Below, piece after piece: positions 20,372 through 24,711 of a DNA stretch of 64,000 nucleotides. Position 1 is the first letter of the stretch, and the number at the start of each line of letters is the position of its first letter. Both the position numbers and the translations under genes were made by a program. The stretch comes from Escherichia phage NHEP29, in sequence record PQ511150.1; one strand, 5' to 3'. The notes under the pieces are model-generated. The model did not search any database and was not told the DNA's origin. It saw nothing but the letters and a program-made list of their open reading frames with translations.

Positions 20372-20611
20372 TTATTTGAATTTCTTGACAATGTTGATAT
20401 AACGTAAAGCTTCAGCATCGATACTTCCAAGAACACTATGAAGAAATGCATCAGCGTAGTATTCCAATTGAACAGGTTCTTTAATCACTTTAGCCGCTTT
20501 GGTTTCAAACAGGCCCATAAGGGCCTTTTTAAGAATTTGTTCGTTAGTGTTCAGTTTAATAGTCAAAATCTCTTCATTAAGTTGGTGATTAAAAGTTTTT
20601 CTAGAAATCAT
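20372..20611 (-). CDS. hypothetical protein (79 aa)
   Basis: ATGA overlap with upstream 386-aa gene. Confidence 0.55.
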   Translation of the reverse strand: MISRKTFNHQLNEEILTIKLNTNEQILKKALMGLFETKAAKVIKEPVQLEYYADAFLHSVLGSIDAEALRYINIVKKFK

Positions 20612-21768
20612 TCCGGGTACCTCAAAGCGTCATCAGAGTTAGTTATATCAATAATAGATATAGAGTTTTCTGCTAACCCGTTTTTAGATAACTGACGTTT
20701 ATAATATCTTTCACAATATGTACACGTCGTCCCACAGATTTCATTAGCACAATCGAAATCCGGATGTCTGAACCACCTTTTTTCTAAAAAGCCATCTAAC
20801 AAAGAGGTTTCAATATTTACTGTATGTGAAAACTCAGTTTCGTTTTCAAGAGTGAAAATAGTCTCTAAAGGCTTCCACAGTTCTAACAAATTACCTTCAA
20901 ACTTTTCAGAAGCGTATGCTTCAAGAACTTTTAAAATGTAGTCTGTGCTACCTGTACGTCCTGAAACTTTGAATTGAGTGATACCAATATCATTATAAAA
21001 TTTCAAATCTTGAGGACGAACAAAACGAGTTCTCAACCAGTTAAATGGGTCTGTATCACGAGCTTTAATACAGTGTTGCATTGGATACCCGTTTAAGGAT
21101 TTAGCATCATCAGCTGTAACATCAGTACTATGGAAAATATAGCAAGAGTCACGATAGCTACAATGTGTTGTATACCCTTTACCGGCATTAGAACAGAACT
21201 CATTTACAAGAACTTCAAATATTATATTGTTCTTATTGCAAAACTCTGCTGCACGCTTCAGGAAAGAAACTGAACGGTTCTTATGAATTCCACAGCAGAC
21301 CTTTTTGATATTGTATTGGTCATGCAAGTATTTGATTTGAGTTACAGCATCGACATGTAGAATTGTTGAAACTTCAATCTCAATGTCTTTATTGACTTCA
21401 CGAACAATTTCCATAACAACAGGGTTAGCGATAGTAATACGCCATACGCCTATTGACCAAAGATACTGAACATAATCCTGAATAGCTTTCTTCTTCCACT
21501 CGACTAGTTCTCTTTTTGAACCAGGATTTATCGTGTTGAGTGTATAGTTAAAGCAAATACCTAATTCGTTACAACGTTTAACGTAATCTTCTAACATCTT
21601 TTTGTCAACGTCAGGAAGCCTAAAATCAGGTCTGGCTGCTACAAAAGCCATTTCTCTTGTAGAGCCGTATACTTCGTTTATCAAGCTATTAGGATAAGTT
21701 TTATTGAGCTCTACGATTTTATCAAGAAGAGCTAAATCAAAATTCGTTCCGATTTTAAAAGTATTCAT
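20608..21768 (-). CDS. Cys-rich hypothetical enzyme (386 aa); candidate metalloenzyme or transferase of the sugar module
   Basis: C-terminal C-x4-C-x3-C-x2-C cluster and further conserved Cys; no confident family call. Confidence 0.6.
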   Translation of the reverse strand: MNTFKIGTNFDLALLDKIVELNKTYPNSLINEVYGSTREMAFVAARPDFRLPDVDKKMLEDYVKRCNELGICFNYTLNTINPGSKRELVEWKKKAIQDYVQYLWSIGVWRITIANPVVMEIVREVNKDIEIEVSTILHVDAVTQIKYLHDQYNIKKVCCGIHKNRSVSFLKRAAEFCNKNNIIFEVLVNEFCSNAGKGYTTHCSYRDSCYIFHSTDVTADDAKSLNGYPMQHCIKARDTDPFNWLRTRFVRPQDLKFYNDIGITQFKVSGRTGSTDYILKVLEAYASEKFEGNLLELWKPLETIFTLENETEFSHTVNIETSLLDGFLEKRWFRHPDFDCANEICGTTCTYCERYYKRQLSKNGLAENSISIIDITNSDDALRYPE

Positions 21769-21822
21769 TTTTGCATCTCGCGTTAATTTATGCGATGGTT
21801 TTTGCAGGTCTTACTTAAATTA

Positions 21823-22209
21823 TTATAGGTTCGGTTTATATGATTTAAATGTTTCGAATTCGCCTTTATTCATAAGAGCTTTGAATTCGTCAGGACGCAT
21901 AGCTTTGTCGTCGATAATCCAATCATATACTGGTTTATGTGTTAGCAAATTATGGTACTTCAAACCAATGTTTGCCAAGTTCTGAATCAGACTTGGGAGA
22001 ATGTCAATCGCTATACGTCCAGGACCTACTGACTTCATACCGCGAGCAGTGTAAAGCGTTATGGTATGCCCTGCATCATACAGGGCATTAATGGCAGACA
22101 CCATTTCGACGTCTGGCTTGAAGTTCACGTAATCACGATTGTTATTCCACTCTGTTATACAATCGTCGACATCAAAACAAAGATTAAGCATGTTTTCTAC
22201 ACGATGCAT
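21823..22209 (-). CDS. HAD-superfamily phosphatase (KdsC-like small sugar-phosphate phosphatase)
   Basis: HAD motif I FDVDDCIT near N-terminus and TARG motif; start at Met6 with TAATG overlap. Confidence 0.65.
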   Translation of the reverse strand: MHRVENMLNLCFDVDDCITEWNNNRDYVNFKPDVEMVSAINALYDAGHTITLYTARGMKSVGPGRIAIDILPSLIQNLANIGLKYHNLLTHKPVYDWIIDDKAMRPDEFKALMNKGEFETFKSYKPNL

Positions 22210-23894: not shown

Positions 23895-23935
23895 GTTGTG
23901 GTCCTCATTGGTAAGTAGGAGTATTGTACACTATT

Positions 23936-24079
23936 CTAGTTAAAGCATTCATACTTTGCTTGTAGTCCAATCATAATCCATCCAATTACAAGTGTTGGAA
24001 TCATTACTGGAGCCGTTAAGCTCCAGTAGATAGTCATGACAAGCATCAATAGTAAAAGTCCTATTGTTATTGCTTTCAT
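23936..24079 (-). CDS. small hydrophobic membrane peptide (47 aa)
   Basis: ATGA overlap with upstream isomerase stop; below ORF-track cutoff. Confidence 0.35.
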   Translation of the reverse strand: MKAITIGLLLLMLVMTIYWSLTAPVMIPTLVIGWIMIGLQAKYECFN

Positions 24080-24711
24080 TGTTCGCCTCGTAACATGGCA
24101 CCTAGTGCACCGCCAGGGTGGAACTTAAGGAAGTCATTAGAGGTAAATCCACGCTCAGACGAAAGGTTGATAGCAAAAGTATCGATAAGCGCTAACAACA
24201 ATGTAGTGGACATAGTCGGAGCCAGAGAATTCTCATCAACCTCTACTGCGATGCCTGTACAGAAAGAGTAATCAAAAAGGGCTTCATTTTCTTGTGGAAT
24301 GTCTGGGTTACAATGCAACAGAATCTGTTTGACGTTCGGACGAATCATTTTAAGATGCTTAGCCACGCCTATCATTTCTTCAGTTTTACCAGAACGACTA
24401 ATATGAATCAACACATCATTAGGCGCAATGAATCCTGCATCACCGTGAGAATAATGCCCGGTGTTCAAGTACATACTCGGGATACCGAGTGAAGCAAATG
24501 TCTCAGAAGCTTTAGTTGCAATATTAGCATTCTTACCAACACCTGTAATAATTACTCGGCTTTCATAATTACTAAGTCCTGGGCGTCGAAGAGTTTCTAG
24601 AATAGCGTTATAACGAGCAGGGTTTTGACTAATTACTTTGGCCATAGCGGCCAAAGAAGAAGCTTGTTTTATGATTGCGTCAATAGCGATAGTAATAGGA
24701 GTAGTTTTCAT
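24076..24711 (-). CDS. SIS-domain arabinose-5-phosphate isomerase (KdsD/KpsF-like, no CBS domains)
   Basis: 211 aa; GVGKN...HGD.G...ISRSGKTEE...SLAPT.STT...HPGGALG aligns with E. coli KdsD N-terminal SIS domain as remembered. Confidence 0.8.
   Translation of the reverse strand: MKTTPITIAIDAIIKQASSLAAMAKVISQNPARYNAILETLRRPGLSNYESRVIITGVGKNANIATKASETFASLGIPSMYLNTGHYSHGDAGFIAPNDVLIHISRSGKTEEMIGVAKHLKMIRPNVKQILLHCNPDIPQENEALFDYSFCTGIAVEVDENSLAPTMSTTLLLALIDTFAINLSSERGFTSNDFLKFHPGGALGAMLRGEQ

Follow-up and report, generated by a model that had tools for sequence, protein, structure and literature searches.

Cytosine hypermodification in RB69-type phages

The DNA of RB69-type phages carries arabinosyl groups that are ether-linked to 5-hydroxycytosine, a structure worked out by NMR and MS (Lee et al. 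2026). Nucleoside HPLC/MS of Mosigvirus NP gives the same unmethylated arabinosyl-dC species and thus confirms the RB69 result. In these close relatives, the gene 56 dCTPase drains the dCTP pool. The TS-fold enzyme gp48 of RB69 uses a flavin cofactor, and its product, 5hodC, was established together with 18O2 labelling (Lee 2026). The 5hodCMP is then phosphorylated by a phage dNMP kinase, as shown for RB69 gp159, after which 5hodC is found in DNA. Once replication is complete, the 5-OH receives one or two arabinoses from glycosyltransferases. The donor, UDP-arabinose, is made by enzymes of phage HY126 in the order Ara5P, Ara-1,5-P2, Ara-1-P and UDP-Ara, with AfhE and AfhF as the enzymes concerned (He 2026, as far as relayed by Lee 2026).

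The region of Escherichia phage NHEP29 considered here is assigned, with a probability of about 0.93, to the arabinosyl-5-hydroxycytosine (ara-5hoC) DNA hypermodification cluster of RB69-type Mosigvirus. The cassette is already known: it was described by Thomas 2018, and its chemistry is given by Lee 2026, passing on the HY126 work of He 2026. The assignment is made from the genes and from the chemistry of close relatives, and nothing substantive speaks against it.

Organisation of the cluster in phage NHEP29

The window, a stretch of 64,000 nucleotides (PQ511150.1), contains on its minus strand all six open reading frames that a preliminary description had reported between positions 20,372 and 24,711 (Table 1). 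Their domain calls (SIS isomerase, nucleotidyltransferase plus APH-type kinase, HAD phosphatase) are upheld by Pfam/NCBIfam matches and motifs. The functional extent given there was too short, as the cluster continues to position 18,164 with a TS homolog, a 299-aa glycosyltransferase and a 182-aa kinase-like protein. Neighbouring cassette genes overlap by 1–4 nt, with ATGA junctions deduced from the ORF coordinates, and the layout is therefore operon-like. A promoter and terminator scan returned signals at chance level only, and the composition of the cassette is unremarkable (GC 0.34–0.42, resembling the flanks). The window also encodes NrdD and NrdG, the anaerobic ribonucleotide reductase. 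T4 has imm.1 and imm alone between genes 43 and 42, in line with the preliminary description.

Table 1. Genes of the ara-5hoC cluster of phage NHEP29 and the associated dCTPase.
Feature	Position	Strand	Remarks
dCTPase, gene 56 ortholog	9572..10090	-	part of the system, outside the span first described
Thymidylate-kinase-like P-loop nucleotide kinase, RB69 gp45, 182 aa	18164..18712	-	label from PHROG 761 and Lee 2026
Putative DNA arabinosyltransferase 1, RB69 gp46:47, GT-B-like, 299 aa	18714..19613	-	predicted to place the first arabinose on the 5hoC of DNA
5-hydroxy-dCMP synthase, TS fold, flavin/O2-dependent, RB69 gp48 type	19613..20329	-	first described as gene 42; identities and D169N signature in text
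Small helical protein, RB69 gp49, 79 aa	20372..20611	-	translationally coupled to the U32 gene (ATGA)
U32-family Fe-S-type protein, RB69 gp50, 386 aa, 13 Cys	20608..21768	-	Peptidase_U32
HAD-family phosphatase, AfhF type, RB69 gp51, 128/133 aa	21823..22209	-	putative Ara-1,5-P2 to Ara-1-P, by analogy to HY126 AfhF
Bifunctional AfhE-type enzyme, 561 aa	22209..23894	-	N-terminal UDP-arabinose pyrophosphorylase, C-terminal APH-like kinase (Ara5P to Ara-1,5-bisphosphate)
Hydrophobic small ORF, RB69 gp54 region, 47 aa	23936..24079	-	start overlaps the SIS stop codon (ATGA)
SIS-domain D-arabinose-5-phosphate isomerase, RB69 gp55 ortholog, 211 aa	24076..24711	-	Ru5P to Ara5P

The DNA of the cluster region is 98% identical to that of many Mosigviruses, and the gene order is that of RB69 gp45–gp56. 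The comparison with RB69 and Mosigvirus proposed in the preliminary description yields orthologs throughout, with 94–100% protein identity to RB69 gp45–gp55 and 96–99.5% to HY126. [quoted passage not shown] Both observations argue against a set of host-derived LPS or capsule auxiliary metabolic genes that would leave phage DNA unaffected. Such an origin would suit the closest cellular relatives, namely KdsD/KpsF, the capsule phosphatase (TIGR01689) and sugar nucleotidyltransferases, but RB69 DNA bears arabinose and the HY126 enzymes, in the relayed account, yield UDP-arabinose. A role confined to LPS or capsule is already contradicted by this published biochemistry, and its probability is negligible.

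The modified base

The TS homolog is 99% identical to RB69 gp48, and 233 of its 238 residues (98%) match PDB 9iqc, the sequence of which equals the HY126 enzyme; identity to T4 gp42 is 26%. Asn186 occupies the position of ThyA D169, where T4 gp42 keeps Asp, while D194 and E160 stand at ThyA N177 and L143. These features place the enzyme with the 5hodCMP synthases and not, as first described, with the gene 42 dCMP hydroxymethylases. The acceptor base was likewise taken to be hmC, whereas RB69-type DNA carries ether-linked 5-hydroxycytosine (Lee et al. 2026). The idea of activated arabinose as the donor for glycosylating a modified cytosine, as in RB69, agrees with the RB69-type genes and the published chemistry. 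So does the reported lack of recognisable glucosyltransferases hold: no T4 beta-gt homolog was found within the window, and no glucosyltransferase homolog is known in RB69 (Thomas 2018).

A route through hmC, made by a gene 42 dCMP hydroxymethylase and converted to ara-hmC with a donor obtained from Ara5P via free arabinose and C1 phosphorylation, was the original reading for RB69 (Thomas 2018). Traces of it persist: several records label the TS homolog "similar to dCMP hydroxymethylase" or "dCMP hydroxymethylase", and the function column of Table 1 in Lee 2026 still gives the free-arabinose order. It is contradicted by the ether link in RB69 and the unmethylated species of Mosigvirus NP, by the formation of 5hodC by RB69 gp48 with 18O from O2, and by the D169N signature of the window enzyme with its low identity to T4 gp42. 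On the donor side, HY126 AfhE, as relayed, makes the 1,5-bisphosphate from Ara5P before AfhF dephosphorylates it. The ara-hmC model, already refuted for RB69 by the published structure work, is highly improbable here.

For an ara-5hoC system in NHEP29, the dCTPase would remove dCTP, leaving only modified dC for incorporation, and the TS-fold enzyme would convert dCMP to 5-hydroxy-dCMP with flavin and O2, as published for the close relatives. The dCTPase is 97% identical to RB69 gp56 (tblastn) and matches Pfam dUTPase_2; the RB69-type gene 56 product is named dCTPase in Table 1 of Lee 2026.

The nucleotide sugar pathway

The SIS isomerase is 100% identical to RB69 gp55, the function of which was assigned from structure comparison (Lee 2026). 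It matches Pfam SIS (E 1e-10), PHROG 5670 and the NCBIfam models KpsF/GutQ (2e-32) and KdsD (7e-31), covering KdsD positions 47–202 only, and consists of the SIS domain alone, without the CBS pair of KdsD.

The intact 561-aa ORF equals RB69 gp53 plus gp52 at 99% and is 96.4% identical to its HY126 counterpart. It has an NTP_transferase domain at residues 3–99 (Pfam 8.5e-10), weak APH/choline-kinase-type matches at 344–409 and, in the kinase half, the catalytic motif HGDPNFSN...IDPRG. The preliminary description could relate this fusion to no characterised T-even modification enzyme; it is the nucleotidyltransferase-kinase described in 2018 as ORF53_52c (Thomas 2018) and belongs to the AfhE type. 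The HAD phosphatase, whose ORF would reach 22,224 if a second ATG further upstream served as the start, is 99% identical to RB69 gp51, matches the TIGR01689 capsule phosphatase (4e-13) and carries DVDDC, TAR and K...DD motifs.

The enzyme set was rightly considered sufficient to lead from ribulose-5-P to a nucleotide-activated arabinose, and it matches the RB69-type route. The proposed sequence of dephosphorylation followed by anomeric phosphorylation has to be reversed, since the AfhE kinase of HY126 precedes the AfhF phosphatase in the relayed work. In NHEP29, the isomerase would form arabinose-5-P from ribulose-5-P, the kinase half of the fusion would produce arabinose-1,5-bisphosphate, the phosphatase, by analogy, would remove the 5-phosphate, and the nucleotidyltransferase half would generate UDP-arabinofuranose.

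Glycosyltransferase, kinase and small genes

The 299-aa ORF is intact and 98–99% identical to RB69 gp47 plus gp46, a putative arabinosyltransferase according to structure comparisons (Lee 2026). It belongs to PHROG 3891 and has no Pfam match; hhalign identifies the "up300" family of uncultured phages as homologous with a probability of 99.7%. The counterpart of RB69 gp3, the second arabinosyltransferase, is absent from the window and lies outside it. The P-loop kinase is 97% identical to RB69 gp45, which Table 1 of Lee 2026 labels "nucleotide kinase", and matches PHROG 761 "thymidylate kinase" (1e-44).

Residues 12–47 of the 47-aa ORF are 100% identical to the annotated RB69 gp54 (PHROG 3610, E 7e-27), and the same slot is occupied by ORFs in PM2 and HY126. 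The slot of the 79-aa gp49 holds a gp49-like ORF and/or a chorismate mutase (CM) in other genera. That gp49 itself is a chorismate mutase was rejected: it has no CM_2 match at E<=10, an hhalign probability of 0.2% against phage CMs and no CM among its PDB profile matches. Moreover, gp49-like ORFs stand alongside CM in loci L028, L034, L037 and L041. The AF2 model of gp49 has a pLDDT of 67. The gene is intact in the window but frameshifted in HY126, its pN/pS is 0.21, and truncated variants are common; it is probably dispensable.

The U32 protein

The 386-aa protein belongs to the U32 family by sequence (Peptidase_U32 PF01136, 41.9 bits where the cutoff is 22.4) and by fold. The preliminary description had left it as an unmappable Cys-rich protein; its family is now clear, while a characterised T-even modification counterpart is indeed missing from the literature surveyed. 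That survey found no published function for RB69 gp50, to which He et al. 2026 or Mahler et al. 2025 may assign a role. The gene is under strong purifying selection, and ten Cys are invariant in the phage subfamily. Three of these coincide in the alignment with [4Fe-4S] ligands established by experiment in UbiU and with the corresponding Cys of RlhA and TrhP. The fourth ligand position of these proteins is not conserved, and the phage motif, C192-x10-C203-x5-C209-x23-C233 plus C340-x4-C345-x3-C349-x2-C352, departs from the CX6CX15CX3/4C spacing.

Characterised U32 members are O2-independent, prephenate-linked hydroxylases, including RlhA, which makes 5-hydroxycytidine; in vitro reconstitution of the hydroxylase has been reported for no U32 protein. 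Comparative genomics suggests, at a little under even odds, that the phage protein may be a prephenate-dependent, O2-independent cytosine C5-hydroxylase and so would provide a second, Fe-S-based route to the hydroxylated base. The presence of NrdD and NrdG in the window, while the TS-type synthase needs O2, points in the same direction. If the U32 protein hydroxylates without O2, an NrdDG-carrying phage could continue DNA modification when its host is anoxic. Dhakaviruses, which infect E. coli, have the same cassette without U32; the oxygen lifestyle of the host therefore predicts U32 incompletely.

Of 15 T4-like loci, 13 have a genuine chorismate mutase after U32, as do 51 phage records, and in Thanatos-2 the two genes move together. 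DAHP synthase adjoins U32 in 8 uncultured-phage loci, and it is fused to chorismate mutase in 5 of the 7 scanned for a CM domain. Neither enzyme was found within the window, so its U32 protein would depend on host prephenate. Among 35 non-T4-like viral loci with U32, a gp46:47-type glycosyltransferase occurs in 24 and a dNMP-kinase-like gene in 21, and MazG/dUTPase-like genes are also found. None has a 5hodCMP-synthase-type TS homolog within 10 kb of U32; the single TS near U32 in these loci is a canonical ThyA.

The U32 protein could instead act on the sugar side and serve UDP-arabinose biosynthesis, as a reductase or in another step. Its gene has the sugar-pathway genes on one side and the TS homolog on the other, gp50 is labelled "sugar or heterocycle reductase" (Lee 2026), and it is entered as a UDP-arabinose biosynthesis enzyme in the record of a BASEL phage. 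AfhE-like genes also lie within 10 kb in 16 of the 35 uncultured-phage loci, sometimes with epimerase-like genes adjacent. However, the conversion of Ru5P to UDP-Araf is chemically complete with the isomerase, AfhE and AfhF, as far as the HY126 work is relayed, and known U32 chemistry is ring hydroxylation. Compact U32 modules without SIS or AfhE genes (L043, L047, L054, L057, L070 and L020) argue against sugar synthesis, as does the linkage to chorismate mutase and DAHP synthase, two enzymes that pentose activation does not involve. The DLP-type Acinetobacter phages (DLP1 cluster) lack both U32 and CM, and the gene list published for their relative DLP3, which forms tri-arabinosyl-5hoC, names no U32 protein (Lee 2026); the core ara-5hoC pathway therefore needs no U32. 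The Dhakavirus clusters agree at the level of genes, their DNA chemistry not being covered by the surveyed literature. A sugar-side function is thus improbable.

Other substrates, such as host or phage tRNA or rRNA, cytosines already in DNA or a quinone, are likewise unlikely, as is a collagenase-type peptidase. Characterised nucleic-acid U32 enzymes all act on RNA, and databases use the names "peptidase" or "collagenase-like protease". Against this, more than 40 loci place U32 beside genes for dNMP kinase, dNTP pyrophosphatase, dCMP deaminase or DNA glycosyltransferase, the 386-aa protein has no counterpart of the long C-terminal extension seen in RlhA (653 aa), and protease-type evidence was not found. 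Action on DNA cytosine instead of dCMP would still be a route to 5hoC.

Comparison with known systems

The ara-5hoC system of RB69 (gp45–gp55 plus gp3, gp28 and gp159) and HY126 ("Afh" genes) has the gene set and order found here. The D169N hydroxylase signature, the AfhE-type fusion and the AfhF-type phosphatase are common to all, and only a few substitutions set the window apart. Its 561-aa and 299-aa ORFs are uninterrupted, whereas in the RB69 reference record two frameshifts, both sequencing errors, break them.

The glucosyl-hmC system of T4 (gp56, gp42, gp1 and the alpha- and beta-glucosyltransferases) lies at the corresponding place in the genome, between gene 43 and uvsX, and follows the same logic: dCTP is destroyed, dCMP is modified by a TS-fold enzyme, phosphorylated and incorporated, and the DNA is glycosylated. 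T4 adds a hydroxymethyl group from methylene-tetrahydrofolate and water, with Asp at ThyA position 169, while the RB69-type enzyme adds a hydroxyl with flavin and O2 and has Asn. T4 draws on host UDP-glucose, in contrast to the arabinofuranose from a phage-encoded pathway, and the glycosyltransferases of the window cluster are unrelated to T4 beta-gt.

The bacterial ADP-heptose pathway comprises the SIS isomerase GmhA, the bifunctional kinase/nucleotidyltransferase HldE and the HAD phosphatase GmhB. Like the UDP-arabinose route, it turns a ketose phosphate into an aldose phosphate, phosphorylates the anomeric position to a bisphosphate, removes the distal phosphate and transfers a nucleotidyl group. 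The enzyme folds are the same, with kinase and transferase fused in each, and a GmhB-like fold match has been noted (Lee 2026). The two differ in sugar (heptose or pentose), nucleotide (ADP or UDP), domain order and kinase, which is ribokinase-like in HldE but APH/choline-kinase-like in the 561-aa fusion. The resemblance is functional convergence, not orthology.

RlhA (ho5C2501 in 23S rRNA), TrhP (ho5U34 in tRNA) and UbiU/UbiV (ubiquinone) share PF01136 and the U32 TIM-barrel fold with the phage protein. RlhA, which has an extra C-terminal Cys cluster also present in phage U32, makes in RNA the same base, 5-hydroxycytosine, that the phage protein is proposed to form, and the linkage of phage U32 genes to prephenate-forming enzymes is a further parallel. 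Phage U32 forms a subfamily of its own, all members seen here coming from phage genomes or from metagenomic contigs of viral or phage-like character; it lacks an RNA-binding extension, and its presumed substrate is a deoxynucleotide. The proposed pairing of a TS-type synthase with U32 would parallel the enzyme pairs TrhO/TrhP and UbiIHF/UbiUV.

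A known arabinosylation cluster

The preliminary description placed an activated-arabinose cassette for DNA-cytosine glycosylation, as in RB69, between a "gene 42" dCMP hydroxymethylase and the DNA polymerase gene (43). This outline agrees with the encoded proteins, which are 94–100% identical to those of RB69, and its account of the corresponding T4 interval, which holds imm.1 and imm alone, is correct. All six ORFs it listed are present on the minus strand at the positions proposed, but the span was drawn too short: the functional unit continues leftwards to 18164 and so also covers the thymidylate synthase (TS) homolog, a protein of 299 aa and a kinase-like one of 182 aa. 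The DNA of the region is 98% identical to that of many Mosigviruses, such as JS09, phi25-307 and LF82 phages, and the gene order is that of RB69 gp45–gp56. Identity to the RB69 proteins is 100% for the SIS protein, 99% for the fusion, HAD, U32 and TS proteins, 98–99% for the 299-aa protein, 97% for the kinase and 94% for the 79-aa ORF; the HY126 orthologs of the fusion (AfhE) and the U32 protein are 96.4% and 99.5% identical. Neighbouring cassette genes share 1–4 nt in an operon-like arrangement, the base composition equals that of the flanks, and a promoter and terminator scan of the region stayed at chance level. The 561-aa and 299-aa ORFs are unbroken, whereas the RB69 reference NC_004928 divides each (gp52/gp53 and gp46/gp47) owing to previously reported sequencing errors.

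Features of the arabinosylation cluster and related genes in the window
Feature	Coordinates	Strand	Length (aa)	RB69 equivalent or remark
dCTPase (gene 56)	9572-10090			
Kinase-like protein	18164-18712	-	182	gp45
Glycosyltransferase	18714-19613	-	299	gp46:47
TS homolog	19613-20329	-	238	gp48
Small ORF	20372-20611	-	79	gp49
U32 protein	20608-21768	-	386	gp50
HAD phosphatase	21823-22209	-	128/133	gp51
Nucleotidyltransferase–kinase fusion	22209-23894	-	561	gp52:53
Hydrophobic ORF	23936-24079	-	47	PHROG 3610
SIS protein	24076-24711	-	211	gp55
NrdD, anaerobic ribonucleotide reductase	38779-41063	-	605	Pfam NRDD 570 bits
NrdG, radical-SAM activase	41060-41533		156	follows NrdD; endonuclease VII next

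Domain searches and motifs uphold the families proposed for the SIS, fusion and HAD proteins. The 211-aa protein has a SIS domain whose nearest families are KpsF/GutQ and KdsD; it matches positions 47–202 of the 328 in the KdsD model, scoring 108 bits against a full-length NCBIfam cutoff of 505, and lacks the tandem CBS pair of KdsD/GutQ. We infer from its sequence a SIS-only relative of KdsD/GutQ with predicted arabinose-5-phosphate (Ara5P) isomerase activity. The 561-aa protein begins with a sugar-phosphate nucleotidyltransferase domain, and its C-terminal half gives weak matches of the APH/choline-kinase type and carries the catalytic motif HGDPNFSN...IDPRG. The HAD phosphatase is of the capsule-phosphatase type (motifs DVDDC, TAR and K...DD); many phage records carry for it the mistaken PHROG and RefSeq name "phosphoheptose isomerase". 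Between the SIS and fusion genes lies the conserved 47-aa hydrophobic ORF, whose start overlaps the SIS stop codon; PM2 and HY126 have ORFs in the same slot, and the RB69 annotation covers its last 36 codons only. Homing endonuclease genes also occur within the modification clusters of some relatives: segB lies between the HAD and U32 genes of Yersinia phage phiR1-RT (L010 4352-4990), and a "homing endonuclease" interrupts the match in NRG-P0074 (hit H22).

The three-enzyme NDP-arabinose route is encoded in the window (SIS isomerase, AfhE-type fusion and AfhF-type HAD phosphatase, each 99–100% identical to its RB69 equivalent), and the ortholog of the putative gp46:47-type DNA arabinosyltransferase is intact. 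RB69 gp3 is the second arabinosyltransferase, and its ortholog falls outside the window, which begins at about RB69 coordinate 5696.

This system has been published, so the novelty claimed for it falls away. Thomas et al. 2018 reported arabinose in RB69 DNA and proposed this module, whose members include the fused ORF53_52c and the SIS protein ORF055c, as the probable source of UDP-arabinose; the fusion enzyme, left unmapped in the preliminary description, corresponds to ORF53_52c. According to He et al. 2026, as reported by Lee et al. 2026, AfhE of HY126 acts twice, first on Ara5P to give the 1,5-bisphosphate and again at the end to make UDP-arabinose, and AfhF strips the 5-phosphate between these two steps, which reverses the proposed order of phosphatase before kinase. 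Lee et al. 2026 (NAR) found that 5-hydroxycytosine, not hydroxymethylcytosine, bears the ether-linked arabinose, and that 5-hydroxy-dCMP is produced by the TS homolog RB69 gp48, which takes 18O from O2 and binds flavin. An independent study of Mosigvirus NP found the same bases and called the earlier ara-hmC assignment erroneous; mono- or di-arabinosylated 5-hydroxy-dC in virion DNA is established for RB69 and NP and predicted for the present phage. The arabinose hides the cytosines of RB69-like phages, which bears on restriction, CRISPR, type IV defence and phage engineering.

The cassette is accordingly an already known system, textbook-in-the-making rather than new, and was partly misdescribed in its base, the identity of "gene 42", the order of sugar steps and its novelty. 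The one lead of worth is the U32 protein, with its ties to chorismate mutase and DAHP synthase.

The U32 protein gp50

The Cys-rich 386-aa protein, also regarded as unmappable, is assignable to Peptidase_U32 (PF01136, 41.9 bits) and has the U32 TIM-barrel fold; its AF2 model is confident (pLDDT 93, pTM 0.91), and its sequence finds no PDB match at E<=1. A protease, as the family name would have it, is a less well supported reading, and characterised U32 proteins are tied to prephenate-dependent hydroxylation without O2. RlhA makes 5-hydroxycytidine in rRNA, TrhP makes 5-hydroxyuridine in tRNA, where the aerobic counterpart is the O2-dependent TrhO, and UbiU/V act in anaerobic ubiquinone synthesis. 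By the account of a 2024 PNAS paper, in vitro reconstitution of any U32 hydroxylase had not been achieved. The precedents of RlhA and TrhP would also allow gp50 to be an RNA hydroxylase; this is likewise less well supported, and the gene sits among those of a DNA modification pathway.

Ten cysteines are invariant or nearly so in the subfamily (121 homologs, down to about 48% identity): C158, C177, C192, C203, C209, C233 and the C-terminal cluster C340-x4-C345-x3-C349-x2-C352. C203/C209/C233 align with C169/C176/C193 of UbiU, C169/C176/C192 of RlhA and C170/C177/C193 of TrhP, and the UbiU residues are three of its four experimentally defined [4Fe-4S] ligands. The position of the fourth ligand is unaligned in gp50, and the spacing departs from CX6CX15CX3/4C and from the UbiU/UbiV variants; invariant C192, within a family-specific insertion, could stand in for it. 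The C-terminal cysteines have a parallel in RlhA, which requires its own.

The literature covered says little of gp50. Lee et al. 2026 give it a table label alone, "sugar or heterocycle reductase", and their text mentions neither prephenate, chorismate, Fe-S clusters nor an anaerobic route; the Thanatos paper leaves the ortholog undiscussed, and the HY126 record annotates it as hypothetical. A search for U32, chorismate mutase and phage together gave no relevant paper in the literature covered, which did not extend to He et al. 2026 and Mahler et al. 2025.

Chorismate mutase and the gp49 slot

A type II chorismate mutase (CM) gene follows the U32 gene, directly or past one small ORF, in Kanagawa-, Mosuguk-, Teguna- and Marfaviruses and in Shewanella phage Thanatos-2, where the pair has been relocated as one unit. 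The phage proteins score 33–41 bits with Pfam CM_2, every one over the cutoff, and their profile matches solved chorismate mutases (1ybz at 3.6e-15). By tblastn, the phage CM occurs in 51 phage records, invariably between the U32 and TS homolog genes, and an HMM scan found a CM in 13 of 15 T4-like viral loci. One T4-like locus, on a 168.5-kb IMG/VR contig (L027, 10001-11918), has a U32 protein 89% identical to gp50 with a kinase gene upstream, the TS homolog directly after it, and neither a CM nor a gp49-like ORF; CM has thus been lost in a second lineage besides the RB69 type, which keeps gp49 in the slot.

No CM or DAHP synthase was found elsewhere in the 64-kb window, so host prephenate would be needed. 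That gp49 might be a diverged CM was suggested by its slot, its length, equal to that of the Entb_45 CM, and an ungapped alignment by eye. It has no Pfam CM_2 match at E<=10, and the idea was ruled out by BLASTP (nothing found), hhalign (probability 0.2%), a PDB profile search that returned no CM, and four other loci in which gp49-like ORFs coexist with CM. The gp49 family is small, and in other genera its members lie between U32 and CM; the AF2 model is poor (pLDDT 67), an insufficient basis for a fold search. In HY126 the gene is frameshifted (L023 7658-7945), the frame changing after the first 40 aa, it is truncated to 47–58 aa in many Mosigvirus sequences (homologs P0142-P0152), and its pN/pS is 0.21 against 0.02–0.06 for U32 and neighbouring genes. 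These features suggest relaxed constraint and a decaying or dispensable gene.

U32 modules in uncultured phages

Relatives of gp50 with 34–58% identity occur on phage-like metagenome contigs and in 35 non-T4-like loci of a viral-contig collection. Within 10 kb of U32 in these 35 loci, a gp46:47-type glycosyltransferase (the "up300" family; hhalign probability 99.7%, E 3.8e-25 against gp46:47) occurs in 24, a thymidylate-kinase-like gene in 21, an AfhE-like fusion in 16, a SIS gene in 9, MazG/dUTPase-like genes in 8, dCMP deaminase in 8 and DAHP synthase in 7, with an eighth case in L018. Two other readings of up300, a subunit partnering U32 and a hidden TS homolog, were rejected, as it is homologous to the glycosyltransferase and unrelated to TS or U32. 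A TS homolog lies near U32 in a single locus and is a canonical ThyA (L143, D169, N177), so no TS-type hydroxylase was found within 10 kb on either side in the non-T4-like loci.

A sugar-side role of gp50, to which the published "reductase" label would lend itself, would be favoured if the DAHP-synthase-like neighbours were KDO8P synthases acting through Ara5P. They are authentic DAHP synthases: DAHPS models outscore KDO8P synthase models three- to fourfold, and five of the seven proteins carry a fused CM_2 domain. Six compact modules (L043, L047, L054, L057, L070 and L020) moreover combine MazG-like protein, kinase, glycosyltransferase and U32 with no sugar-pathway gene, and the sugar-side reading is the less well supported. 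The same holds for the proposal that gp50 acts on cytosines already within DNA.

The modules of uncultured phages probably form a family of DNA modification systems, not described before, that glycosylate a 5-hydroxypyrimidine; the base may derive from C or U, because dCMP deaminase is adjacent in eight loci. SIS, AfhE-like fusion and DAHP synthase–chorismate mutase genes are often added to them, and some of the contigs exceed 200 kb (among L040-L075 from IMG/VR, L002, L005 and L018-L022). A different setting is seen in L003/L004 (10001-16360), where a U32 homolog accompanies an NT5C nucleotidase, an NMN transporter, a deoxynucleoside kinase, a radical SAM/SPASM protein, a second U32-like protein and a nucleoside deoxyribosyltransferase. 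These neighbours resemble a nucleoside-salvage set, and the contig, which also encodes a dockerin/GH43 protein, probably belongs to an anaerobic Firmicute or its prophage.

Proposed role of gp50

U32 and CM are accessory to the modification cluster. The cluster of Acinetobacter phage DLP1 has neither, the two being absent as a unit; the related DLP3 makes tri-arabinosyl-5hoC, and its published gene list has no U32 protein. The AfhE-like fusion occurs in 57 Acinetobacter phage records, and no Acinetobacter phage appears among the U32 matches listed. A rule that U32 is confined to phages of facultative anaerobes would fit this absence, but it is contradicted by E. coli Dhakavirus IME08, which lacks both U32 and CM; the pattern is weak evidence. 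Also relevant is that the window encodes NrdD, an anaerobic ribonucleotide reductase, with its activase NrdG, since the 5hodCMP synthase published for such phages depends on O2.

The simplest reading, drawn from family chemistry and gene association and a little short of even odds, is an O2-independent, prephenate-dependent route to a hydroxylated pyrimidine. On this reading, gp50 would be an Fe-S hydroxylase converting dCMP or another deoxycytidine form to its 5-hydroxy derivative (probability about 0.45). In RB69-type phages, 5-hydroxycytosine would then arise in two ways, through flavin and O2 in oxic hosts and through U32 and prephenate in anoxic hosts, with gp50 redundant with the flavin enzyme. 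In many uncultured phages, U32 would be the sole base hydroxylase, working with an NTP pyrophosphatase, a dNMP kinase and a gp46:47-type glycosyltransferase, and a phage DAHP synthase–chorismate mutase would often supply the prephenate. The estimate is held down because no in vitro reconstitution of a U32 hydroxylase is on record, the cysteine motif departs from the usual Fe-S pattern, CM or DAHPS-CM adjoins U32 in relatives and not in the window, Dhakavirus departs from the host-lifestyle pattern, and the TS survey of uncultured loci spans 10 kb.

If correct, gp50 would give the U32 hydroxylases their first member with a small soluble nucleotide as substrate, and phages would for the first time be seen to take oxygen from prephenate, drawing on the shikimate pathway for DNA modification. 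An O2-independent, CM-coupled hydroxylase would resolve the mismatch between an O2-requiring enzyme and gut-enterobacterial hosts infected by phages with an anaerobic ribonucleotide reductase. For enzymology, a soluble nucleotide would also be a far more tractable substrate than those of the known U32 enzymes (ribosome precursor, tRNA, membrane-bound polyprenyl phenol).

Comparison with the T4 system

The TS homolog matches PDB 9iqc, 9ir2 and 9iqu at E 1e-160; 9iqc is the HY126 protein, from which it differs at 5 of 238 residues (98% identity). T4 gp42 is absent from its best 60 PDB matches. Aligned with E. coli ThyA, it carries Asn186 at D169, Asp194 at N177 and Glu160 at L143, and Asn at D169 is the published diagnostic of 5hodCMP synthases. 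The supposed "gene 42" dCMP hydroxymethylase, with 26% identity to T4 gp42, is thus of the 5hodCMP-synthase type, and the acceptor base is accordingly predicted to be 5-hydroxycytosine and not hmC, in line with the published RB69 linkage. The lack of a recognisable beta-glucosyltransferase was rightly noted: T4 beta-gt has no tblastn match in the window, and Thomas et al. 2018 found no alpha- or beta-glucosyltransferase homolog in RB69. The T4 glucosyl-hmC system is therefore distinguished from the present one by its gp42-type hydroxymethylase and beta-gt, features not found in the window; unlike the window enzyme, T4 gp42 keeps Asp at the diagnostic ThyA 169 site.
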